Positions 19,901 to 49,900 of a DNA stretch of 64,000 bases are shown here, in pieces. The notes below the pieces were generated by a model, which ran no database searches, was not told the DNA's origin, and was given only the letters and a program-made list of their open reading frames with translations. Position 1 is the stretch's first letter, and the number at the start of each line of letters is the position of its first letter. The DNA is from Torpedo marmorata (Eukaryota), in the NCBI GenBank assembly GCA_977017645.1, contig OZ360227.1, forward strand, positions 165,664,001 through 165,728,000, in the 5' to 3' direction. The translations under genes were made by a program, and so were the position numbers.

Positions 19901-22900
19901 CATTTCTCAGTAATCCAAACATCTGAGTGCATATTGCTACTGAAGTATCAGTGAGTTTTATGTGATTAAATTGGGTCAGTCTGTGGTAAACCACTGTATA
20001 TGTATTGTGGGCTGGTGATAGGTTTGGACATGCCCTGCTGACTTTCCCGGTGGCTCCTCCCACAAACCCCCTTGAATAAACGCTATAGTGCCACAACTCC
20101 TCCCCCAGTCCGGGACAGATCATCAGCTCGAATGTAGCTCCATTCTATAACTAATAAAAGCCTTTCAGTTCATATACAACTTCCAGTCTTTTGGAGTTAT
20201 TGATAGGCGTATCACAGTCGAATACCAATTACTCTTTCTATTCTTTCATGCAGAAAACATTTGCTCAGAAGCAACAACAATATAATAATCTGTTAAAGGG
20301 TGTCCTAGCAATTTGTCTTTGAAGTGTAATTGCTATAATCTGCTCACTCCAAAGGGAGCCATTGAGCTATCTGTTAACAAGTACTATAAAAACATTCTGG
20401 GATTAAATACTTACATCACTCTGCAAATCATAGGCCTTCTTTGCCTGAATCACATCATTCTGGTCTGGGAGACAGGTCCACCGGTGCAGGTGTCGCCTGT
20501 AGTCAATGTCACTGACCAGGGTCTGGCATTTCTTGGCCAACAGGATGTCCAGCATGTCGACCGGCATGTTGAACTTGGTCTTGGTTTTCTCAAAGTCCTT
20601 CTTGTACTCCCTGTTGCTCTGCATCTTAGCTATGTGCATTGACCAGACCATTTTGGGATCATCTTGAATGCTGCGGCATCCAACGTGATGGCCAAGCTGC
20701 TTGCGGTAAGCCGTTTTGTACTTGTACTGTTAAAGTTAAAATTGTCAGTTTGCATGTAAATTCATACCAAAGCAAAGATCAAGCAAATGATTCAGTGAGT
20801 ACATTTAACTCAATATAACTAGTCTTTAAAGATTTTAATCTCTACATCTGAGAGACTGGACGCAGACTGGGAGATTGCTTCACTGAGCACCTTCGCTCTG
20901 TCCGCATCAGTGACAGGGATCTCCCGGTGCCCAATCATTTCAATTCCGTGCCCCACTCCCAAGCTGACATTTCTGTCCATGGCCTCATGTACTGTCAAAT
21001 CATGACCACCCAAAAATTGGAGGAGCAACACTTAATTATCCGTCTGGGCACTCTCCAACCGGATGGCATTAAAATCAACTTCTCCGGCTTCTGCTAGCCT
21101 ATTCCCTGTTCTCCCTCCCTTCCCATTCCCTCTGTCTTATTTCCTCCAGATCTGCACCCTCTTCCCTCTCCATTCACAGAGCCATCCTCCCTCCCCCTGT
21201 TTGCTGGTGTGCCCTCCCTCCCTTATCCACCTATTGCCTCCTGCCTGTGGGACTGTGCTCCTCCCCCTGCCCGTCCCCCTACCATTTTATTCAGAAGCCT
21301 GTCAACAATTTGCTCATACCTTGATGAAGGGTTCAAGCCCGAAACATTGGGTTTGTATCTTTACCTTAGCTATATAAAGTACACTGTTTGACCTGCTGAG
21401 TTTCTCCAGTATTGTGTTTTTACATCAGACATTTTAATATTGCATTTTCTTGTTCCGCATTCCAATCCAAAATAAGCAGGTCCACTTACATCGCTGGCAA
21501 TGTCTCTGGAGGCTTTTGCTGCTTTAATTGTGATGGCATCAGGGGACAGGTTGTAGCCCTTTTTCTTTGACTCCTCCATAGCAAGTCTGTACAGTTTCTA
21601 TAGGGACCACAACAATATACTCGGTATATTAAAAAATCACAACAGTAATCATCAGAGTCTCAGAATATTTTCCCTTTAGATTGCACAGAATTTTTCTTCT
21701 ATTCATTATATTTCATCCTTCCACCTGTTAAATTTTAACCCAAAAATGTTGTGAATAATTGCTTATCATTTATTTTTCTTTAAATACGCAACTGCACACT
21801 GCATATGGACATTGCAGGCAAAGCATCATTTATTGCCCATCTCTTATTGCTAAAAGGACATTAGAATTAATCATATAATGTGGAACTGGAAGCATATCAT
21901 TTCACTGGGAGTGAGCCAGTGTCCTTTTACTGAGCCAGTTAGGAATGCAGCATCTCTCTCAATTACAATTCAAACCTTTTCCTCCATTCATTGATTTGTG
22001 TCTGCTGTGTTCCTAATTTTTACACCTATCTTCAATCCATAATCCCACAATTCTTAAAAAAACAACAAAAATCTGTAAGTCTCAGCTGTTAAAAAAAAAA
22101 TCAAATGCTTCAACATCTATGTCATAAGAGGGGAATTGGAAAAGGAGCTTCATATTTTCATTTCCAAATGATTTAGCTCTAATTTTAGGATCACGTCCTC
22201 TTTTTCGTTATTCCTTCACCAGAGGAAGAATTTCTGATGCCATCCTTCTTTGTCATAGAATTGTGCAGTATAGAAACAGGCCCTTTGGTTCACTGTGTTG
22301 ACCATCATAGCTGTCTATACTAATCCTACTTGCCTGGATTAATTCTATAATCCTCGCCCCACACATTGAAATACCTGTCACGATGTTATTTAAATGTTGT
22401 TACTGATTCAGCCTCTGCTATCTCTCTGGCAGCGCATTCCTCATATCAACTACTATTCGTGTGAAAACTTTAACCACAAGATCTCCTTTGAACATTCTCC
22501 CTCTCACCTTAAACCTACACCCTCTAGTTTTAGTTACCCATACCATGGGAAACAGGCATTGCCTATCTACCTGCTCTATACCTCTTGCATTTTTATGTAG
22601 TTCATTCATATCACCTCTTAGCCTCTTTCGCTCTAGAGAAAACAGACCTAGCCTATCTAATCTCTCCTGATAACTCACGCCCTCTCATCCAGATAACGTC
22701 CTTGTGAATCCTTTCTGCAATTCCTAAGCTTCATCATGTCCTTCCTTTTGTGTGATAACCAGAACTTCACACAATACTCCAAGTGCGGCCAAACCAATAA
22801 CCCGGACAGTGAGAATGCTGAACGACCAAAGGAACTGCTCACCATAACCATCCAAAACTCTAATATTCATGAAACAATATTTATTTATAGATATGAATAC

Positions 22901-25900: not shown

Positions 25901-28900
25901 GCCTCCACATTGATGCAATCGCAAAGAAGGCTCGCCAGCGGCTATACTTTGTGAGGTGTCTGAGGAGATTCGGTATGTCACCAAAGACTCTTGTAAACTT
26001 CTGCAGGTGTACTGTGGAGAGCATTCTGGCTGGTCGCATCACTGCCTGGTATGGAGGCGCCAACTCTCAGGACAAGAATAAACTCCAGAGGGTTGTTAAC
26101 TGGCCTGTGACATCACAGGCACCAGACTTCACTCCATCGAGGACATCTACATGAGGTGGTGTCTTAAAAAAGCAGCCTCTATCCTCAAAGACCCCCACCA
26201 CCTAGGCCATGCCCTCTTCACTCTGCTACCATCGGGAAAAAGGTACAGGAGCCTAAAGACGAACACTCAACGGCACAAGGACAGCTTCTTCCCTGCTGCC
26301 ATCAGATTCCTGAATTATCAATGAACCAAAGATACTGACTTACTTTTCGTGCACTATTATTTATATATATTTTATAGTAATGTCGTAAGATGGTAATAAT
26401 ATGAATGTTTGCACTATGATGATGCTGCAAAACACCAAATTTCATGACAATAAATTCTGATTCTGATGTTAATCTTCACCTTTTGTAATAATTTGATCAT
26501 TTTTTGTTCCTGTATTTTAATAATTTATGATATATGGATATCTAAAAACACATTTCTTTTCAATAGCACTCAGGCTCTTTCTCTTATGACTTTATTTCTG
26601 GATGCAAAGTGAACGATCACTGCTATATGTGGATTGCGGAGGATCACGTGACCTCCCTGTCTGGAACTTAGGTGGAAGTCGCATCACCTGCCAATCAAGT
26701 TTGGACTCCGGCCATCCATTAGTGCACACCTTACCATTGGCTTATTGAAATGATGCAGTGTCATCATTGTCCAGACGCCCAGCTCAGACCAACATAAACT
26801 ATAACACATGCAACAGATCTCGCTCTTTGCTCTTGGTCCTGACTACGAACGCTGCTCTACGCCAGGTCGCTATTGTGGACATTGCTGGAGGAGTCGTTGT
26901 TAAGGTGTGCACTACTTAGAGCGGACTGTAGTATTTTTTGGCAGTAAGCATTGAGCCCCCCCACCCCGTTGGTACAGGGAATCGGGAGTGTGCGTTTAAG
27001 TCCCTGTCTTGTTAGTGTGTATTAGTAACGGAATATTACTTAACACTGATCCGCACCGAGGTACAAGTATTGGGAGTGTCTGCTGAAGTCCCTGTCTGTG
27101 AAGTGTGTACACGTGTGGGAGTGTGCGGTAGGGTAAGCAGCCACTGGTATCGAGGACCCTTGCGCCCGATGTGCCTGCTTACACCGTTATAGTTTTTGTC
27201 TCGTACCCCGTAGAAGATAGGCGGCCACTGGTATTGGAGTCCAACCTGGATCCGATGTGAATGCCTGTATAGCTATTAAGTAGTGAGAGTGATTAAGTAT
27301 TGCTTGACGTCTTCCCCTGTTTGATTCCCGTGTGTACAATAAAGTTACCTCTGATTGTGACACTTGTGTCCAGACTCATCTCTCTGTGAACCCACTGAAT
27401 CTGATACTATTCCCAACACAACAATCAAACACATCTTACAATTGGATGCTGTTAACTGCAATTATGTCCATCACCATCCTCATTCTTATGTTATCCCCTT
27501 CTCCTGTCTGGCTCATCTGTAAACCTGGGTATACAGCTCTTTATGAAGCTTTTATTAAATAATAATCTGGAAGTTATTTTGCAAATTAGCAAACTATTAA
27601 ATTTAATTTCAACATTTGCTCTGATTGAATTTAGATTACTAATCCAGTGAGATATCATATCCATTTAAATCAATATTTGGTAACCAACCTGAGCTCCTTC
27701 AGTTCCCCTCCCTTGCTCTCATAATTATCAAATGTCTCTTCAAAATGGCTTCCCATACTTACGTCACTGCACGCAATCTGATTCTGTTTTGCCAATATGA
27801 TGTCTGGCGTATCAGGCATGATGTGAATTTTGGTCTTGTCTGCTTCCCAAGCTTCAACATATGCACGCTGAAAAATATGTACAAGCAAGTTAGTATTCCA
27901 ATGGACCAGAACAAATTTACTGACAAAAATCTATATCTTTCAAACACCAAACAGAATATAATGATTCAACCTTATTCATTCTGTGGAAAAAAAAAATCAG
28001 ATTAAAATAGACTTGCCTTATTCATTGTAAGTGCATTATTCTTTGCCAGGGTCAGATCCATGGAGTCGGACAAGCTGGTGAACTTGAACATCGATGGGTG
28101 CTGACGGTAATTGTTCTCACTCAGAATCTCTCCAGCTTTTTTAACTTTGGCCACATCTAGCGATTCATGTGGAGACCATCCAATACCCTTTAGCCACTGA
28201 AGGTCCATTTTGTATTGATTCTAGAAGCAATGAAAAAAATCTTTGCAAATTACTCTATTTAAACCACCGAAGTTCATTCTAGCTGAGAATAAGCAAAATG
28301 ATTGAGATTTGAATGAAGGACAGAAAGTACGTTATTTTACGGCAGACCTTTTCTCAACAATTATTTATGCTTCCTTGCAATTGTGGACAGTGCCTCCTGC
28401 TTGAGGGGATTACCAGTTTCTAATCCATCAATTTGCTATTATCTTGTAGTGTCCTACCATTATAAATGGGGAGGACGCAAAGGAAGAATGTTTTATTAAA
28501 TGGATAAAATGGGGCGGCACAGTTAGCGTAGCGGTTACCGCAATGCTGTTACAGCGCCAGCGACCCGGGTTCGAATCCGGCGCTGTCTGTAAGGAGTTTG
28601 TACATTCTCTCCGGGTGCTCCAGTTTCCTCCAACCCTTCAAGAAACGTACGGGGGTTGTAGGTTAATTGGGTATAATTGGGGAGTACAGGCTTGTGGGCC
28701 GGAAGGGCCTGTTACTGTGCTGTATGTCTAAAAAAAAGAGATACGTCCTTGTCCAATGAATTCTATGGTAAAATCTAGCTCTTGCAACAGAGCACATCAG
28801 AGGAAAGATGTAAACATATGCATGAATAGCAGCAAGTAAACAGGTAAAGTAGTATCAAGTCAAAAGTATATTTTAAGCAGTGGTTCCATTGTATAAGCAT

Positions 28901-31900: not shown

Positions 31901-34900
31901 AAAAAAATTTAATAATGTCAAAAAGTGGAGCTCAATCTATTTCCATGAATTGTCTGAAGATTTTCATTCTCCACAGTTGAAGACACATTCTTCTCTTTGG
32001 AAATAATTTATATTTAATTCACATTTGCTTTGATAATTTTGAAAGTAATAATAAATGATTGAAAATTGACCATATAGGTTACTTTCTAGTCATTCAAGGC
32101 ATGGATATCTCTCCCCCAGCCCAACAACCACTGAAACACTCCCACCCTTTATAGATCTCTCAGTCCCTTCATCCTACCTTTAGTGCCTGCACCTTCAATT
32201 GTCTTGGGTACATCACTGGCACACTCTCCCTAAATTTTTCTACCTTAAATCTCTTTTGTTAAACCGTGCATCTGTTTAGACACCTTTGCCAAAACTCACT
32301 TCTCAGTGCCAAAGTTTTGTCCGATTGCATACCCATGAAGCATCTTGGGACTATTTTATAATGTTAAATGTATAAAGGAGAATCACATCCATACATCAGC
32401 AGAACAGCTTAATAGACCACGACTGGGAAAAATAATTTACTGAAAGAATTTGTGCAGCAGAGAATTTAGTTAATGTTCCCCCCAAACCTAAGCAGAACAC
32501 AAATTTGGCTCTGAATGGGCACTTACCTCACTAATGTTTATTGCATTTGCTTTGGCCAGTTGTATTTCAGGAGAGTCAGGCATGATATGAATCTTTGTCT
32601 TGTCCTTCTCCCAGGCTTCTGTGTAAAGCCTCTGATATAAATTAAAAAAAGGAAATGAATGGATCAAAGTTTTGCTAACCATACATTAGGGATGGCCAGA
32701 AATGCCAGCCTGTTGAAGGGCCCAGGCCCAAAATGTTGTCACATTTTAAATCCTATGGATGCTGCTTGACCTGTTGAGTTTCTCCAGCCCATTTTTGAAT
32801 TGCATTCAACTCCAGCACCTTTAGACTTTCTTATTTAAATGATAGCCTACGACATTCTGTGAGTACATAAAACCTATACTGAACAGTTCCACCTCTCTGC
32901 AAGTGGTTTAACTGTAATGTTTCAAGACACAGCAATAACTTGTGTATTTTTTGATTGTATTTGAAAAATGAATAGTTTAAAGAAGAATTACATACAAGAG
33001 GAATACAAAAGCTGAGCAGCTGGTCCTACCGACTAACCCAATATCAACCTATGATTTCAAATATTATTGTGAATTCAGGAATAAGTTGCCTGGAATTTCT
33101 TTGGTAGTGAATTTACGGTAGTTGTCAAATATTACTTCTTCATTTAGTCCACTGCTATGCTGACATGTGTATTGCAAAAAAGAAAATTACTAAATTCAAT
33201 ATCCACACTCAATATGGCAGTTATACTACAGTAATATAAAGGTAAGTTACACTTCCAATAAAATACATCCATGCCATTCATGATGTCAAGTATATGTGAA
33301 GGTTCTCTTCACCTTAACTATGCCTTCACCTCCTGAAACCTACATGAGGGTTTAGCCTCAACCGCATTTTTATGGAGCTATTATAGATGCCAACTCTACT
33401 TCCAATTAGGAAGGTTAGAATCAGACCATAGTTTCCTCGAGGTTTGGTCAACTTTCAGAGCCTTTTATGGCCCAAGCAAAACACCTCATTATCCTTCAAA
33501 GATAAGCAAAAAAATACAGGCTGTTTTTAAAATGGCACCAAAGCTCCCTTTAATAACTGCTGATTAGCCATTTAGTGTCAGGACAAATTACATTTTACAA
33601 AATTGAAACCTTGCCTGTTGCAGGATCTGCTCTAAGATAACTATAGCTAAAGAGATAGTGTCTCCACTAAAAAAAGAACTTTTGATATTCCTATCAACAA
33701 GTAGCACTGGTGAACATTGATCTGGAGAGGGAACTGGGAATGCAGTGCTTGAATTGTAGCAACATCGCATGAAAGTACAGCAAATAGGTTACTATTTGCT
33801 TTGATGAAAGATATTGCTAACATAATTATTTTCACCCTAATGCCTGCTGTTTCTGAAACAGTGTCAGTTACACAAGGGAGCACACCAATGCTATTTAAGA
33901 ACTGGTGGAAAGGAATTTCATAAACTTAGAACTTCTTAAAACAGCACAAGGCAAATTAATAATGCAATTTTCACAATTGAAACATGATACAGTTGGATTT
34001 CTAAGATGGAATCCCAGGATAAGTCTGAAATAAGAACTTCATCCAGATTTGTTAATCATTACAATTCTTTACCCAGAATACTGGTTTGAGAATATTAGTA
34101 AGGCTGGGCTCGTTTTCCCTGGCATGACGGAGGCTGAGGGGTAATGTGATAGATTAATATAATATCGTATGAGATATAGATCGTCAGAATCTTTTTTCCC
34201 CCATAGTAGGAATATCAAAAACAAAAAGTCTACGATAAGGCAAAGGAGTTTTAAAGGGGATCTGAAGGAAGTGCTTTTTTTTTCCATGCAGAGTGATTGA
34301 TATCTGGAGCATATTGCCAGAGGAGGTGGTAGAATTGATACAACCACTTTGTTGAAGAGGCATTTAGACAGACACCTGAAAGGCAAGGCAGAGAAGATAC
34401 AGACATCATACAGGCAAAGCAGTCAGCATGAATGCAGTGGGCTGAGGAGCCCTTATCTGTGCTGTATGACCCTATGGCGCCCGTTAAGGTCAATTACTGG
34501 TAATGTTGAAGGCAAAGATAAATAAATTGGTTTCTGAGACAATTGCGGTATGGACAGCAAATTAGATGAGATGGACGATCAGTTAAAATCTGAGTGAATG
34601 GCTCAAAGTGGTGCTGTGACCTGATGGGAGGATGAATTTACCAAGAGCAGTGAAGGTGGAGTCTCTGAATAAATTCAAGGGTGAGATTGACATGAACCAT
34701 GAGAGGTGTGACCTTGAGGCCGAACTGGATCAAGCATAATCTGATGGAATGGCAGATGAGCCGATTGGCTACTCCAGCTCTTGTTTCTTACACTTTTATG
34801 TACTCTTACTTATATTTTGTACGTTCTCGGTTATTTAGCACAAAATTCTGAGGAAAAAAAATCAGATTAAAATAGACTTGCCTTATTTATTGTAAGTGCA

Positions 34901-37900
34901 TTATTCTTTGCCAGGGTCAGATCCATGGAGTCAGACAAGCTGGTGAACTTAAACATTGATGGGTGCTGACGGTAGTTGCTCTCACTTAAGATCTCACCAG
35001 CTTTTTTGACCTTGACCACATCGAGTGATTCGAGAGGAGACCATCCAATACCCTTTAGCCACTGAAGGTCTGCTTTGTACACAATCTGGAAGGCAATGAA
35101 AAATCATTTCACAACTGTGCAAAAGGACAGAGCTCTTAGATTTTCATCTTTGTCCAATTCTTCTGGAATAGGTGCCGACTAAAAATGACAGAACGCCCTT
35201 CCACCACTATTCGGGGAGTATAACTGAACCCCTCCACCCGATGTTGGTTCCACTGAGACATGACATGCTTCCTGCTGTGTGAGTGATGTGTGATTATAGG
35301 AGGCACTTGAACTAAGTCTGGCCTTCATTGAGTTTTCTGCTAACTGCTTTGGGTAAATACTGGACCCACCAGCAAAAGCAGAAGTAAAGGCCTTTGGCAG
35401 CCAAGATCAAGGAGACATTTAGGGTGTGCTGCTGTGCACAGGAGAAAACTCAAATATCATTTTTCTTGGGCAGAGTTCATGGCTGGACAGTGCATTCTTG
35501 TCCTCTGAAGATTAATCAATGTCAGAAAGTTATCAAATTCAAATATTATATCCAGAGGTTTTAAGAAGTTTGAAGGTTTATGGGGCAGGATTGTCTTTAA
35601 TCATGGAAATCCAGAATATGGGTCAAACCTATAATATTCCTCGAAAAATCTGTTGAGGTTGACTGAATTGAAAAGTTCAAAACAGGAATTGATGTTTTTG
35701 TTGTTTACAAGTCTGTTGATGTTAGTGGAACTAAAATATGTTGATGTTGTTAAAATATAGTTCAGCTTTGATCTAATTGTATGGCAAAGCAGTGAAACAG
35801 GGCTAAATGGTGTCCTCCTGTTCAGAATGTTCCTAACTCTAAGACAAGCTATCGAAACAAAATGGGGAATCCATCCTTTTTAAAGTTTTGAAAGCTTGCT
35901 AGATCAAAATCATGGAACTTGGCTTCAAAATGCATTGTGGCAAGCACCATTCTGTTTTTATTCCTCTGCTTGTGGCATTATGTAATGGCTTTATTGTTCA
36001 AGTGTATGATATCGTTGATATTATACTCACGTCACTCTGCAAATCATAGGCTTTTTGTGCATGTTTCACATCATTCTGGTCTGGGAGACATGTCCACTGG
36101 TGCAGGTGTCGCCTGTAGTCAATGTCACTAACCAGGGTCTGGCATTTCTTGGCCAACAAGATAGCCAGCATATCAACTGGCATGTTGAATTTGGTCTTGG
36201 TTTTCTCAAAGTTCTTCTTGTACTCCCTGTCACTCTGCATCTTGGCCAAGTGCATGGACCAGACCAGCTTAGGATCATCTTGAATGTTGCGGAAACCTAC
36301 ATAATTGCCGAGCTGCTTGCGGTAACCTGTTTTGTACTTATACTGCAAAAGAGAATATAAAGCAGGAATGTAATGTTGCGGCTTTAGTCAGACCACACTT
36401 GGAGTATTGTGGGCAGTTTTGGGCTCTTTACTGAGGAACAATGTGTTGGCATTGGAGAGGATCAAGAGGAGGGTCACTGGAATGATCCCCAGAATGAAAA
36501 AGTTATCATACGAGGAGTATTTGATGGCTCTGGAACTGTACTCACTGGACTCGCCTTTCGAATACTGAAAGGATTGGATAGAGTGGATGTGGAGAGGTTG
36601 TTTCCTGTGCTGGGGGAACCTGGGACCAGAGGGCACAGCCTCAGAATGCAAAAACGTCCCTTTGGAACAGAAGTGAGGAGGTGTTTGTTTACCCAGAGGG
36701 TGGTGAACCTGTGGAATTCATTGCTGCAGGTGGCTGTGGAGGCCAAGTCATTGGGTATATTAAAAACAGGTGGATAAGTTCTTGATTAGGAAGGGAATCA
36801 AGGATTACGGGAAGAAGGCAGGAGAATGGAGTTGAAAGGATAGTAAATCAGCCATGAAATGCCGGGACAAACTCGATGGGCCGAATTACACTCCTATGTC
36901 CAATGGTCTTATGTTCTAAAATTGTTCCAACCCCTCAGTGGTATTTCCCAAGGTACAATAAATGTCCAATTTCGGTCTTGATTACAGTTATGTTTCTCTT
37001 AAATAGGCACAGATGACATATATAAGTTAATTAGGGAAAATTTAACTTGTGGTCACTATGAAAGAGCCAATATATCAGAATGCTTTGAAGGGAAAGTGCT
37101 CATTGACCAAGATAATAAGTGGAGGGGAAAGGGTTGGGGAGGAAGGGAACAAAAGTGTGAACTCAAAGCCCAACCAAGAGAATATTTTTAAGGATGTTTT
37201 TGAAATTTGCTGCAGTAACATCAAAATGTAAAGATTTTGTAAAAGGACAGAATCTTAGTTGCTGAAAAAATGGAATTAAAGAGGGACACATTTAATTGGG
37301 ATTGATTCCACGTCAGCTGAGTGCCAGATGGATATTGTTGAAGAACACCAAGATTGAGAGGTTAACTGAATAAATTTGTTTCGGATAGAATTAAAGTACT
37401 GAGACTGATATTTGGAACTTGTAGTTCAAAAATTGTCATCACAAGGAATACATCTTGAGATAATACAAGAATATTGTACATAGTGGTAATTCATGAATAA
37501 CAGTGGTTTTGTTGTTATAAATTTTCTGGGCTTGTGTTAAGTGGCAGTCTTCAATAAGGTGAGAGGTGGGAGACGCAGAAGATAGCAACTTTGACCACAG
37601 AGCCAATGAAACAAAAAAAGACAAATTTCTTTAAGAAGCATAAATATAATTCTGCTCTCCTTTAATTTATACTTCCAATTGCTACCTGGGGATCATTGTT
37701 GGAAAGCTGGGAGGTGAAGGATATTTCATATCTCAAAGTTGCTGGGACTTGCAATTCAAATGCACTCGTTAAAAATATTGGACAAGGTGTCCTATTAAGT
37801 TAATAATAGTATGAATCAATCATAGAAGGGAAAGTCATTAAAAACTGTTGCCATACATCTGGTATCAATACTGAGATTCTTTATGTTTTTGTTTTTGTTT

Positions 37901-43900: not shown

Positions 43901-46900
43901 TCTCACTTGCAATCTCTGTTGCTTTCTTAGCCTTCTCAACATCCAATGAACCAATGGGACTCCAGCCAATCCCCTTCAGCCATTGAAGGTCCATCTTATA
44001 ATTGTTCTAGATAATCAAAAACAACAACATCTGAATCTTTAGATGTGCATGCACCATAAAACTAAGCAAGACCTGGATACTTGCATCACCAGACCACAAC
44101 TATCTTTAATGATTAATTGGACTATAGTATCTTACTTATCAATTGCAATACAGATAATTATAGAGACTGACCATACACTAAAAAATGCATTGAAGCCACA
44201 CCAATGCAGTGTTTACAAAAATATTTTTAGTTCACCTTTGAGATGTGGCTTTTACAGTAACTAATATAAAAGTGAATGTACTTGGAGATTTAATGACCAT
44301 GAAGAGAGAAGCTATTCCCAAAAGCATTTGATTCAAACCATTCATTCCAGGAATCATTCTTGTGGACCTTCTCTGAACCCTCTCCAATGCCAGCACATCC
44401 TTTCTTAAATAAGGAGCCCAAAACTGTACTCCGCACTCCAAGTGAGGCCTTGCAAGTGCCTTATAAAGCCTCAACATCACATCCCTGCTCTTATATCTTA
44501 TTCCCCTAGATATGAATGCCAACATTGCATTTGCCTTCTTCACCACCGACTCAACCTGGAGGTTAACATTTTGGGTATCTGCATGAGGACTTCCAAAGTC
44601 CCTTTGCACTTCTAAGTTTTGAATTATCTCCCCATCCAAATAATAGTCTTCCCTTTTTTATTCCTTCTACCAAAGCGCATGACCGTATACTTTCCAACAT
44701 TGTATTTCATTTGCCCATTCTCCTAATCTAAGTTTCTCTGCAGCCTTTCCATTTCCTCCTCACTACCTGCCCCTCCACCTATCTTTGTATCATCTGCAAA
44801 CTTAGCCATAAAACCATTTATTCCGCAATCCAAATCATTAACATACAATGTAAAAAGAAGTGGCTACCGGTTACCAGTGGTGCGGTACACCACTGGTAAC
44901 TGGTAGCCAACCAGAATAGGATCCCTTTTTCCCCACCCTCTGTTTCCTGCCGATCAGCCAATACTCTACCCATGCAAGTATCTTTTCTGTAATTCCATGG
45001 GCTCTCATTTTGTGAAGCAGCCTCATGTGTGGCACCTTGTCAAAGGCCTTTTGAAAGTCCAAATATAAAACATCCACTGCATGTCCTTTGTCTATCTAGT
45101 CTGCTTGTGGTTTCCTCAAAAAATTGCAGTAGGTTTATCAGACAAGATTTTCCCTTCAGGAAACCATGCTGACTTTGGCCTCTCTTGTCAAGCACCTCCA
45201 GGTACTCCGTAACCTCATCCTTGACAATGGACTCTAACAACTTCCCAACCACCGATGTTAGGCTAACATGTTTATAATTTCCTTTCTGCTGCCCCTCTCC
45301 CTTCTTAAATAGCGGAGTGACCGTTGCAATTTTACAGTTGTCTGGAACCATGTCAGAATCTATTGATTCTTGGAAGATCATTAATAGTGCCTCCACAATC
45401 TCTATAAATACTTCTTTCAGAACCCAAAGGTGCATTCCATCTGGTCCGGGAGACTTATTTACCCTTAGACATTTCAGCTTGCCAAGCATATTCTATCTGG
45501 TGATTGTGACTGCACTCACTTCTCTTCCCTGACACCCTTGAAAGTCCAGTATACTGTTAATGTCTTCCACAGTGAAGACTAATGCAAAATACTCATTCAA
45601 TTCCTCTGCCATCTCATCTCCCATAATTTCTCCACAGTTGTGTCATTTTTCCATTCAAATATTCCTTCTTTTTTGGAATATACCTGTCCTGCACCTTCCT
45701 TATTTCTTGCAGAAACTCCAGCCATTGCTGTTCTGCTATCCTCCCTGCTAGTGTGCCTTTCCAAATAACTTTTGCCAGTTCCTCTCACACCTCTGTAGTC
45801 TTCTTTGTCCCACTGGTATACTGACACCTCTGATTTTAGTTTCTCCCTCTCAAACTACAGGGTGAATTCTATCATATTATGATCACTGCCTTCTAAGGGT
45901 TCCCTTACCTTCATCTCTCTTATCAACTCTGGTTCATTACACTATACCTACCGTAATTCAGAATTGTCATTTCCCTGATCGGCTCAGCCACAAGCTGTTC
46001 AAAGAAGCCATTGTGTAGGCATTCTACAAATTCTCTCTCTTGAGATCCAGTTCCAACCTGGTTTTCCCAATCTACTTACATGTTAAAATCCGCCATGACT
46101 ACCATAACATTGCCCTTCTGACATGCCTTTTCCATTTGCTATTGTAATTTGTTGTCCACATCCCGGCTATTCTTTGGAAGTCTATATATAACTGTCAACA
46201 GTATTTATTTATTTAATTCTCTTTCTTTGGTTTTAGCTACTCAATTAGATCCAAATCCACTTACAGCAATATTTGGTATAAATGATCCTAGTAATCATGA
46301 TCTTACTAATAATCAAACATGTGATTGCTTTTTCTTCTCTGGTTGCAAGGTGACAGATCTTGCTAAAATGGAAGGATGGTAATCCTCCTATTTATGAAGA
46401 TTGGCTATCAAGTTTAATGTCCTATTTAACATTAGAAAAGATTAGATGTTCAAATATTAAATTAAACCTAAAATTTACTAATATTTGGGGTTCCTTTATG
46501 GACTATTATCAGAGTTTATGATTCCTCATGCTTTGAAGTTATATTATCTCTACAGGTCAGTGCAATTCTGGGGTGGGGGTAGGTGGAAGGCTAGTTTAAA
46601 TTGCTTTAGCTTTTATAAAAAAATGTATTACGATGAAATTACTATGTTATTTTTTTTGTGGCTTGGTTCTTTTTATATCTATTGGTATTATAATACTAAA
46701 TTGTAAAGAAAAAAAAATGATATATACCGTATATTTTGGCGTATAAGTCTAGTCTTGAAACCCTCAAAAATCTCTCAAAAAACTGGGGTCGACTTATACG
46801 CCGGATATACTTTTGAGACCTTAAAATCAGCTCAAAAACCACTCCACGCCGATTCGGCGTATAAGTCGACCCTTGAAAACCCGATTCGGCGTATAAGTTG

Positions 46901-49900
46901 ACCCTTGAAAACCCGATTCGATGTATAAGTCGACCCTTGAAAACCCGATTCGGCGTATAAGTCGACCCTTGAAAAACCAAAAAAAAACCCGACTGCAACA
47001 AATTTTCATTGACCTTTTTATTGAAAACAACAAGACATTTAGAACCCTTCATAATCACTTTCGCTATCATCGTCTGAGGCAAAGATCTCGGCAAGCACAT
47101 CCGGGGTCTCACTGTTTAAACAGTCATCGTACGGGTCCCAGTCTGTATCTGATGAGGCGGCTTCAGCTTCGTCGACAGTGTCCCACAATAAATCATCTTC
47201 CGTACCATCAATTGCACAAGAGATACCGCACTTTTTAAACGATTTTATTATAGTCTCTACTTTCACTTTGTCTCATGCCTTGAGCACGAAGTCACACAGC
47301 ACATCAAGCGATGCAGCACGCATTGGCCTGCCTTTTGTAAATGATTTTTCTGCACTCGACATCCATGTATTCCACTCTTCACGCACATGGTCTTTGAATG
47401 GCTTGTTCAAGCAGACATCGAGAGGTTGCAATATAGACGTCAAACCACCCGGGATAACCGCCATGTAAGTATTATTTTGTGCTAATCTACTTTTAGTCTT
47501 CTCAGTTAAGTGGCTACGAAACATATCCCAGACCAGCAAACTCCGTTTCTTGAGTAAACCGCCTGACCGCCTGTTCCACACATTGTCTATCCATAGTTTT
47601 ACACCATTTTCATCCATCCATCCTTTTTCATGAAAATGTACAAAAATACCCGCAGGGAATTTTATTTTAGGTTTAAATTTACGTTTGAAGTTTACCATGG
47701 GTCTTAACTTTGTCCCGTCGGCCATGCACGATAACACCACAGTAAACCTGGTCCTTTCATGGCCTGTACTCCTGGTTTGCACAGTTTTCACACCTTTCCA
47801 TTCCACTGTTCTATTGCCTATCATGTCAAAATTCATGGGGGTTTCGTCCACGTTTCCAATATTTGCCAATGCAAACTTGTGTTTCTGCCGGTTACGTAAA
47901 ATAAACTGGTGAAAACTTATAACTTTATGATCAAGATCTTTTGGTAGTTTCTGAGCAATTTTTGTTTTTTGTCGTAATACCAGATTTTTCCTGTTCATAA
48001 AACGGTTGCACCAGCATAGCTTCAAAATCATTACTGAGTTCTGGGTGCGACTTTGCCCAGTTCAGTGCAAATGTTCTTATTTTATTTCGGGTGACTATGT
48101 AGCAATCTTGCCTCTGTTCACGTACCCATGTTGCGACGTGATTTTCCAACTCTGGCCAACGAGTGATCCCTCTTCTCATCGAACATTGCCTTTTTGGTAT
48201 TTTTCTTAAAGTATCTTCTTTCTTCCTCCAATCTCTTACCAACTTCTCCTATATATCAAATTTTCTTGCAGCAGCACAGTTGTTGGTTTTCTTGGCCATT
48301 TCTATCACTTTTAATTTAAAACTCGCCTCATACTTTTGTCGTTTCAATTGAGCCTCCATGATAACAATCACCTCCAGCCAACGCCCAGAGCTCAATCAGC
48401 GCGATCGTTGTGGGTCGACCTATACGCCGGTCAACGCCCAGCAGCTCAATCATCGCGATTTTTGGGGGTCGACTTATACGCTGGTCAACGCTCAGCATCT
48501 CAGGCATCGTGATTTTTAGGGGGTCGACTTATACGCCGGATATACAATAAAACCATTAAAATGAGGCTGAAAAAGGGGGGTCGACTTGTCTGCAAGTCGA
48601 CTTATACGCCGAAATATACGGTATATATATCTGTAATGTATAAGTAAAATTTTTTTTTTTTAATTTAATTTAATTTAGACATATAGCACGGTAACAGGCC
48701 ATTTCGGCCCACGAGTCCATGCCGCCCAATTTGCACCCAATTAACCTACACCCCCAGTACGTTTTGAACGGTGGGAGGAAACCTGAGCCCCCGGGGAAAA
48801 CCCACGTAGACACGGGGAGAACGTACAAACTCCTTACAGACAGCGCGGGATTCGAACTCCAGTCCCGATCGCTGGCACTGTAATGGCGTTGCGCTAACCG
48901 CTACGCCAACCGTGCCACCTCTATCTTTTTCCTCTTGCCATTTCTTAACTCAACCCACAATGTTAAGCATGCTATACATCTTGTTTCCCCTCTCATGTCC
49001 TTGCGTGGTCAGAAAAGGAAACAAGTTGAAGGAAAAAGGTTGAATTCTCAATAAAACCATAGAAATCCAAAGCCTGTTCTGTTAATGAATAGAATGGGTT
49101 GACAAAAAGGGTATGAAACTAGATTTTTTTTAGAAAGATTTTCCAAAAGCAGAAATACTTACATCACTCTGTATTTCCATCATCTTTCTGGCATGTTTTA
49201 GGTCCATTGCATCAGGTAGGTATGTGAAATGGTGGAGTTGTTGCCTATAATTGGCATTAGTGGCCACTTCCTGGGACTTCTTCGCAGCTGAGATGCTCAT
49301 CATGTCCAATGGCACGTGATACCTGGTCTTACTCATCTCGTAATTCTTTTTGTATTCACGATCAGACTGCAACTTGGCCACGTGCATGGAATGAACCAGC
49401 TTAGGATCATCCTGCAGGTTACGGAAACCAACGTGCTTTCCTCTTGCCATTTCATAAGCATGCTTATACTTGTACTGCAAGAAAGTAACGGTGAAAAATG
49501 AACCATGAATCCGTTAAAAGAACATCCAAATTACCAATAAAAATCTATGTGCAGAATTATGAAGGACAGTATCTATGAAATAATTTTCCATTTCATTTTA
49601 ACATGAAACTGATTTCTTCACACTACTGTACTTCAAAAATACAGTAAGTTAGCAGTGGTAAAATAGTTGAATGGAAGGTATTGCAGCCTCTGTGACTTGT
49701 ATCCTCTCTGCTTTGAATGTTTATAACATTTAAATATTTATTGGAAACATTTGTTCCAAAATGTATGGTATGAGTCACACAATCAGGTTTATCTCCTTGA
49801 CTGGTGAAGCGTGTGGGTACTGCATCAACTTTACAACCAACGTCTACTATTGTGCTAAAGGTCAATCTGCTCAATGCCAATGTAGTTACAGAACCCACTC

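Follow-up and report, generated by a model that had tools for sequence, protein, structure and literature searches.

A short insertion, likely copied from a paralogous exon, has probably replaced a splice donor in a nebulin super-repeat

Repair synthesis followed by end joining (SDSA+EJ) has been described (PMC2895639), as has the closing of abandoned repair synthesis by end joining (PMC9299229), and in the available part of PMC13015775 mismatch-containing microhomology is reported for both polymerase theta end joining and microhomology-mediated break-induced replication. Introns can also pass between paralogs, with three cases in a table of PMC3443670, and GC splice donors are said in the accessible text of PMC2490688 to need a consensus context. 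For nebulin, high identity among the repeats within a species has been read as recent duplication (PMC7754682), and the word 'conversion' occurs 0 times in the part of that paper available to us. In the literature searched, with most subscription papers and supplements outside its scope, we found no report of the case described here or of conversion among nebulin repeats. The case concerns a nebulin exon, D4. Our main reading, to which we give a probability of about 0.72, is that a 46-base insertion, missing in two relatives, was copied into D4 from its paralog D5 by repair involving homology and microhomology, and that splicing thereby moved to an imported GC donor.

The window (the whole 64,000-nucleotide stretch of DNA that was analyzed) contains a portion of a nebulin gene, read from the minus strand, and the exons, introns, splice signals and junctions described below all lie on that strand. 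Its exons follow a four-exon unit A, D, E, F of 312, 204, 105 and 108 nt, which amounts to 104 + 68 + 35 + 36 codons, or 243 residues. Matches in named nebulins are also 243 residues apart, the period of the nebulin central super-repeat, and in those proteins the window corresponds to the central repeats. In a protein search with D4, 13 of 14 matches were named nebulin, nebulin-like or unnamed vertebrate proteins and all 14 contain the nebulin repeat domain PF00880, so that D4 belongs to the central super-repeats by its domain relatives as well as by its period. Protein searches did not find a close ortholog of D4, the best identity among 287 proteins being 72%; the 120 protein matches listed, among 3302, came from mammals, birds or reptiles throughout. 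When 29 exons from 55819 to 1601 are joined using the GC donors of D5 and D4, they read as 1806 codons with 0 stops.

Exon D4 (28220-28017) is 204 nt long, or 68 codons, when it ends at its GC donor, and is a mosaic of D2-like and D5-like sequence. Its sister copy is exon D2 (10994-10791, 204 nt), which has the weak donor AAG/GTTGG. The template exon, D5 (35085-34882, 204 nt), occupies the region 34845-35085 together with its GC donor and intron start. The D-exon paralogs are 82-91% identical. Elsewhere in the window, exon D7 (62272-62066) measures 207 nt, one codon more than the others, and an E-type exon lies at about 60430-60330 with loosely defined limits. There is also a run of 133 N at 408-540, and the introns contain a 66-nt tandem pair (46849-46978, 94% identical) and a 60-nt direct repeat (2339-2398 and 2636-2695, 95%). 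The interspersed repeats of the window are similar to those known from sharks and rays.

The insertion in D4 spans 28030-27985. Its 46 nt comprise the last 14 nt of the exon, the GC donor, and the first 32 nt of the intron, including a run of ten T. In a self-search of the window its sole match is D5, where a stretch of 44 nt (34895-34852) is its counterpart; the two differ by 1 substitution in 44 nt (43/44 identical) and by 2 more T in D4. Just before the insertion D4 and D5 are identical for 37 nt (28031-28067), and the homologous junction lies somewhere inside this segment. At the other end is a microhomology of 8 nt (27978-27985) that is 7/8 identical to bases 30-37 of the D5 intron, a count that uses the window letter at 27981, so that the ancestral match could have been 6/8. 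Matches of at least 7/8 to the junction 8-mer occur at 53 of 64000 minus-strand positions, and in the D5 intron at 2 of ~2250, one of which is the junction itself.

Downstream of the insertion lies a relic of the ancestral end of exon D4 (27971-27984), which is now intronic if the GC donor is used; the base at 27985 may belong to either side. It leads into the ancestral donor AAG/GTTGAA (27965-27973, with its GT at 27970-27969) and the ancestral D4-E4 intron (27868-27970), which is 103 nt long, or 149 nt when counted from the GC donor. The likely working donor is the imported AAG/GCAAGT (28011-28019), whose intron begins at 28016. The original prediction had pointed to a 14-nt repeat of the D2 exon end and donor at 27980-27967, and this 14-mer does occur on the minus strand at those two places only, with a chance of ~2e-6 of its arising in the intron. 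The match to the end of D2 extends to 27985 (18/19), overlapping the D5-like tract. Aligned with the D2 intron, the ancestral D4 intron gives a weak alignment (global p = 0.01, local p = 0.30). With 6 introns tried, we found no significant ancient homology between the D5 and D6 intron starts (p = 0.087). Searching 31 exons for stranded ends or starts returned the D4 relic and matches at 63967, 60417 and 32221. Those at 63967 and 60417 are not stranded ends, both being inside unlisted exons, and the one at 32221-32209, a 13-nt match to the F2/F3 exon ends plus GTA in the E5-F5 intron, is probably due to chance.

We then aligned contigs from four of 24 sequencing runs, representing organisms A, C and F, to positions 27600-28480 of the window at 84% likeness. 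Organism A (run X1) is ~1% different from the window: over the four longest contigs at its D4 locus, 8 of 926 positions differ. A single contig reaches across 27838-28053, from E4 over the relic and the insertion to the GC donor; it has 0 substitutions, its one difference being a gap of 1 nt in the T run, and the D4 structure is therefore real and common to the window and organism A. In organism C (~7% different), a contig of 905 nt (contig 13) with D4-specific flanks on both sides skips exactly the 46 nt, passing from 27984 to 28031. In organism F (~11% different), contig 8 skips 107 nt with 62 letters between, which makes its D4 intron 45 nt shorter. Because 46 nt are missing in C and 45 in F, codon 63 of the ancestral D4 ran straight into the relic, and its donor was the GT at 27970. 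The idea that the relic is a former exon end thus stands on the orthologs from C and F; the further suggestion that it is a 10-nt piece of D2 does not, since D2 is a sister copy of D4 and not the source, and the relic consists of 14-15 exonic nt of D4's own.

The relatives also polarize the transfer. A contig of organism C with D5 flanks (contig 15) can be aligned over 25 nt of the copied intron start; it has 23 differences from the window, and an exon-only D5 contig from RNA of the same organism (contig 17) also has 23; from these counts in two samples we infer 0 differences in the 25 intron nt, and hence a GC donor at D5 in organism C. In the RNA contig, D5 ends at this boundary and is joined to E5 (30/30 letters match the E5 start). 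The D5 intron start is the same in organisms A and C. Since this intron start is older and spliced at D5, and is missing from D4 of C and F, D5 is the template and D4 the recipient. This agrees with the predicted direction, D5 to D4 with an imported GC: in organism C the intron start is found at D5 and is missing from D4. The ortholog comparison proposed for finding the exon with the ancestral GC accordingly gives D5, with letters in organism C that are deduced from counts. Rejoining out of register had also been proposed, and fits the net gain of 46 nt relative to organism C.

Under our main reading, a break or stalled fork within D4 would have left a 3' end in nt 154-190 of the exon, and this end would have invaded D5, which lies 6.9 kb from D4 within the gene. 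Synthesis would have continued through the D5 exon end, the GC donor and ~32-37 bases of intron. The new strand, once released, would have annealed to D4 codons 64-66 through the 7/8 microhomology, 46 nt out of register, and the insertion would have been closed by homology at one side and microhomology at the other, as in aborted homologous repair plus end joining. Break repair and template switching during replication are indistinguishable here. The exchange was non-reciprocal, as gene conversion is: D5 is unchanged, and E4 and F4 still resemble the D2 unit. Classical gene conversion is in register and leaves length unaltered, and here there is a net gain of 46 nt. Exon E4 (27867-27763, 105 nt) is 88% identical to E2 and 61% to E5; there was therefore no crossover to the D5 unit, and a simple unequal crossover is rejected because D4 is still followed by E4 and F4.

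How far the recent tract reaches into the exon is a separate matter, because D4 is a mosaic well beyond the insertion. At 36 sites D2 and D5 differ and D4 carries the letter of one or the other; the best single switch fits 31 of them (permutation p = 8e-5), and the signal persists without the first 15 nt (p = 0.0016) and within nt 1-153 alone (p = 0.002). The three-way comparison of D2, D4 and D5 thus bears out a change of best-matching paralog along D4. As had been noticed, the 5' half and the upstream intron are D2-like: nt 1-77 equal D2 exactly, and the match reaches ~75 nt into the upstream intron (28221-28293 is alignable with D2), a product of older D2/D4 homogenization that organisms A and C have too. 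The 3' half and the downstream intron are D5-like, also as described before, with 2 differences from D5 against 12 from D2 in nt 136-204, the donor AAG/GCAAGT in common, and the intron start shared as far as 27978. The middle of the exon mixes D2 and D5 letters with no clean switch.

At exon nt 78, 96 and 153 (28143, 28125 and 28068) D4 carries letters of its own, which are also in D4 of organism C, among the differences listed, and are absent from D2 and D5 of that organism. Because organism C D4 shares the letter at nt 153, the recent tract would be limited to 46-83 nt and no overwriting of D4 is needed, although this left limit is a single site and patchy heteroduplex repair could leave that letter too. 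Organism F backs a short tract, with 4 differences only in D4 over 28016-28062. Copying from D5 was therefore correctly foreseen, and replacement of the whole 3' half was not, in view of nt 78, 96 and 153. A longer tract, in which a single conversion event replaced D4 with D5 sequence from around nt 136 as far as and including the donor, patchy repair sparing nt 153, would explain the 11 successive D5-type informative sites at nt 138-194, and the differences listed for organism C omit most of those sites (nt 138-152 and 166-171), as well as the interior of the relic. We consider it unlikely. It has to accommodate the D4-only letter at nt 153 in organism C; the 4 differences in organism F are too few for a D2-like end that also has D2 letters at nt 166, 169 and 171; nt 1-153 by themselves already give the switch signal; and a contig of organism F, described below, shows likeness of D4 and D5 arising without this event.

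The wider D2-to-D5 mosaic in D4 is the outcome of older and recurrent exon-limited exchange among D2, D4 and D5, and the same kind of exchange is visible across the window. Twenty homogenized exon pairs are 82-96% identical, with third-position identity of 0.69-0.90 and alignable flanks of 0-75 nt; third-position identity in 69 other pairs is 0.44. Six A exons (36342-36031, 31405-31094, 20726-20415, 13776-13465, 6145-5834 and 1912-1601) are 84-96% identical while their introns are alignable over only 0-40 nt, those at 20726 and 13776 sharing ~40 nt of upstream intron; this is strong exon-limited homogenization. E4 and E2 (27867-27763 and 10708-10604) are 88% identical and F4 and F2 (21597-21490 and 9241-9134) 92%, with a homologous flank of just 5-20 nt. 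The units between E4/F4 and E2/F2 are 63-72% alike, and a recent tandem duplication of two super-repeats is rejected because alternate units are merely 63-72% alike.

Some of this exchange is lineage-specific. At position 28164, D2 and D4 of organism C (run X3) share a change that is absent from D2, D4 and D5 of the window and from both contigs of organism F at that site, which is lineage-specific homogenization in organism C. In organism F (run X14), a contig of double depth (28033-28142) has a D5 flank on one side and a D4 flank on the other, with 30-nt overlaps to a contig of the D5 upstream intron and to a contig of the D4 downstream flank. Most simply, D4 and D5 of organism F are identical over these 110 nt; an alternative reading is a D5/D4 fusion plus a further copy. 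D5 of organism F is also D4-like over its first 15 nt. High identity among nebulin repeats within a species can thus be produced by conversion and does not require recent duplication.

With the insertion in place, D4 has two candidate donors. The reading frame and the exon length of 204 nt are preserved only with the GC donor, and codons 64-65 then likely read Leu-Thr instead of His-Arg. By sequence this donor would open a U2-type GC-AG intron: GC at +1/+2, an otherwise consensus donor, and an AG acceptor. Donors were paired with the end motif of U1, to which the GC donor makes 8 Watson-Crick pairs (-5.9 kcal/mol) and the relic 4 plus 1 G-U (-4.1), the third-weakest duplex. On a matrix trained on 29 donors of the window, with +1/+2 left out so that GC is not penalized, the GC donor scores 8.3 and the relic -4.65, the lowest of 32 donors scored. 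The relic donor is the closer of the two to the acceptor. The position of the D2 donor scores -4.63 in the window, near the value of the relic, and this boundary is used in RNA of organism C, in which the D2-E2-F2 junctions are present; a weak donor of the relic's kind can therefore work in this gene. The GC donor is nonetheless predicted to outcompete the relic, because it is consensus apart from +2, is followed by a U-rich stretch from +10 to +30, and faces a very weak old GT. The U runs of the insert lie at +10 to +13 and +21 to +30. TIA-1 binds a zone of 10-28 nt and helps U1, according to the available text of PMC4027183, and by analogy one could guess at TIA-1-type help for the D4 GC donor.

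A joint between 27867 and 28017 in an RNA-like run of organism C (X9) looked like use of the D4 GC donor, and we rejected it: it belongs to D2, in an organism without the insertion. It shares 7 substitutions and an apparent indel pair in exon E with the D2 contig of organism C and not with the D4 contig, and it runs on into an F2-type exon start. In this run D2 and D5 are represented by contigs and D4 is not, which may be a filter effect or skipping of the super-repeat and proves nothing. In the segment 28016-27969 the insert carries a signal resembling an acceptor, with a branch-like CTGAT, the run of ten T and a CAG ending at 27981, followed by 10 nt and the relic GT. A 10-nt micro-exon in front of the relic GT, reached from an upstream A donor, is possible from these motifs; an intron from the GC donor to the signal at 27981 would be 36 nt, far below the 82 nt of the shortest intron found in the window.

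Reading on to the relic adds 46 nt, shifts the frame and meets an in-frame TAA at 28004-28002, ahead of many downstream exons. The 250-nt exon with a stop after MNKASLF that had been predicted for this case is correct by reading frame. A premature stop upstream of later junctions generally triggers nonsense-mediated decay, so an isoform subject to it is possible by reading frame, and on donor scores it would be minor. It is rather doubtful that the relic GT is used often enough for a frameshifted, decay-bound message to trim nebulin output. The relic was a working donor in the ancestor, its use leads to the stop, and GC donors are enriched in alternatively spliced genes, as stated in the accessible part of PMC2490688. 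Against frequent use stand the scores of the relic, lowest by matrix and third-weakest by U1 duplex, and there is no sign of regulation; the structure is found in organism A as well as in the window, D4 having stayed open in each, which fits a tolerated silent fossil. The relic is therefore probably near-silent, as judged from the donor models, with rare use giving a frameshifted and likely degraded message. That a single repair event built a switch with two donors, one giving normal nebulin and the other a message bound for decay, by placing the GC donor and U-rich enhancer of D5 ahead of a working GT, strikes us as improbable for now.

It is similarly doubtful that the insertion was tolerated, whichever donor wins, because the super-repeat containing D4 is mostly skipped. 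In human nebulin entire super-repeats are indeed skipped, namely exons 63-66 and some of the triplicate region (PMC7109182, available part), and the central repeats of named nebulins are where the window maps. D4, E4 and F4 are, however, intact and in frame with normal splice signals, and a comparison of D4 in organism A with that in the window shows 1 difference over 160 nt.

Without the relatives the direction of transfer would be open and a target-site duplication conceivable, because the 11-mer that ends exon D4 recurs in direct orientation at 27980. The GC donor could then have arisen in D4 itself, by a local insertion that duplicated an 11-nt target site, with later conversion carrying it into D5. 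This is very improbable once the relatives are considered: the intron start is present at D5 and not at D4 in organism C, D4 of organism F lacks it, and two precise losses from D4 would be required, which the relatives contradict. The true edges at 28030 and 27985 show no duplicated target, nor is the insert element-like, as would be expected of a mobile element. An assembly chimera of D2, D4 and D5, which paralogs 82-91% identical might invite, is extremely improbable, given the organism A contig across the whole structure, from a run differing at 8 of 926 positions, and an insert that differs from D5.

The D4 event is a short donor transplant upon older exon homogenization; it is real and polarized by two outgroups. 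It offers a probable natural replacement of a splice donor from a paralogous exon in which the template, the ancestral state and both junctions can be read. It adds a probable route from GT to GC donors besides point substitution, and indicates that an intron boundary can shift in DNA with protein length kept. Exon-limited conversion in nebulin super-repeats also means that high repeat identity need not indicate recent duplication. D4 in addition pits a consensus GC donor against a weak downstream GT donor in a small natural experiment. Its weight is limited, as it is a single event in a single lineage with a functional effect that is only predicted. Interest would rise in the unlikely case that the relic is used and coupled to decay: a two-donor switch, if true, would be a birth of unproductive splicing in which both parents can be seen alongside the ancestral state, and a GC donor would have been reached without point mutation.

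The repair chemistry behind the insertion is already known. As in SDSA+EJ and one-sided invasion (PMC2895639, PMC9299229), judged from the parts of those papers available, a homologous template was copied and left unchanged, and a junction of long identity (37 nt) is paired with one of 7/8 microhomology; D4 differs from these systems in being a natural germline product of intragenic repeats, found in two lineages, with a splice donor as cargo. It resembles the systems in the available text of PMC13015775 in its junction homology of 7/8 with one mismatch, and departs from them at its second junction, where identity to a template lying 6.9 kb off extends over 37 nt or more; this argues for homologous invasion rather than local snap-back.

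As in intron transfer (PMC3443670, available part), intron sequence was passed by recombination between paralogous copies. A whole intron moving into an intron-free paralogous site is not what we see, because the outgroup D4 already has the intron: D4 gained the donor and the first 32 nt only, and intron number stayed the same, so the event acts, by analogy, like a partial intron transfer. The same source describes intronization, with which D4 shares 14-15 once-coding bases that are now in an intron. In organism C the bases 27984-27971 adjoin codon 63, which makes them former exon, assuming use of the GC donor; unlike intronization, which involves no inserted DNA, the change in D4 was caused by a 46-nt insertion that supplied equivalent codons and left protein length unchanged.

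Switches from GT to GC in vertebrate donors (PMC2490688, accessible text) are alike in that an orthologous intron probably went from GT to GC in a consensus context. In D4 the switch would have come by transplant with no T-to-C change, and the old donor is still present; since that donor lacked the consensus context, GT to GC by point mutation is unlikely here. Finally, D4 shares with nebulin super-repeat expansion, as far as the available parts of PMC7754682 and PMC7109182 describe it, central repeats of 243 residues and four exons with high identity within a species. Here, by comparison, identity ends at or near exon edges and lineage-specific changes are common to copies, and both features point to conversion.
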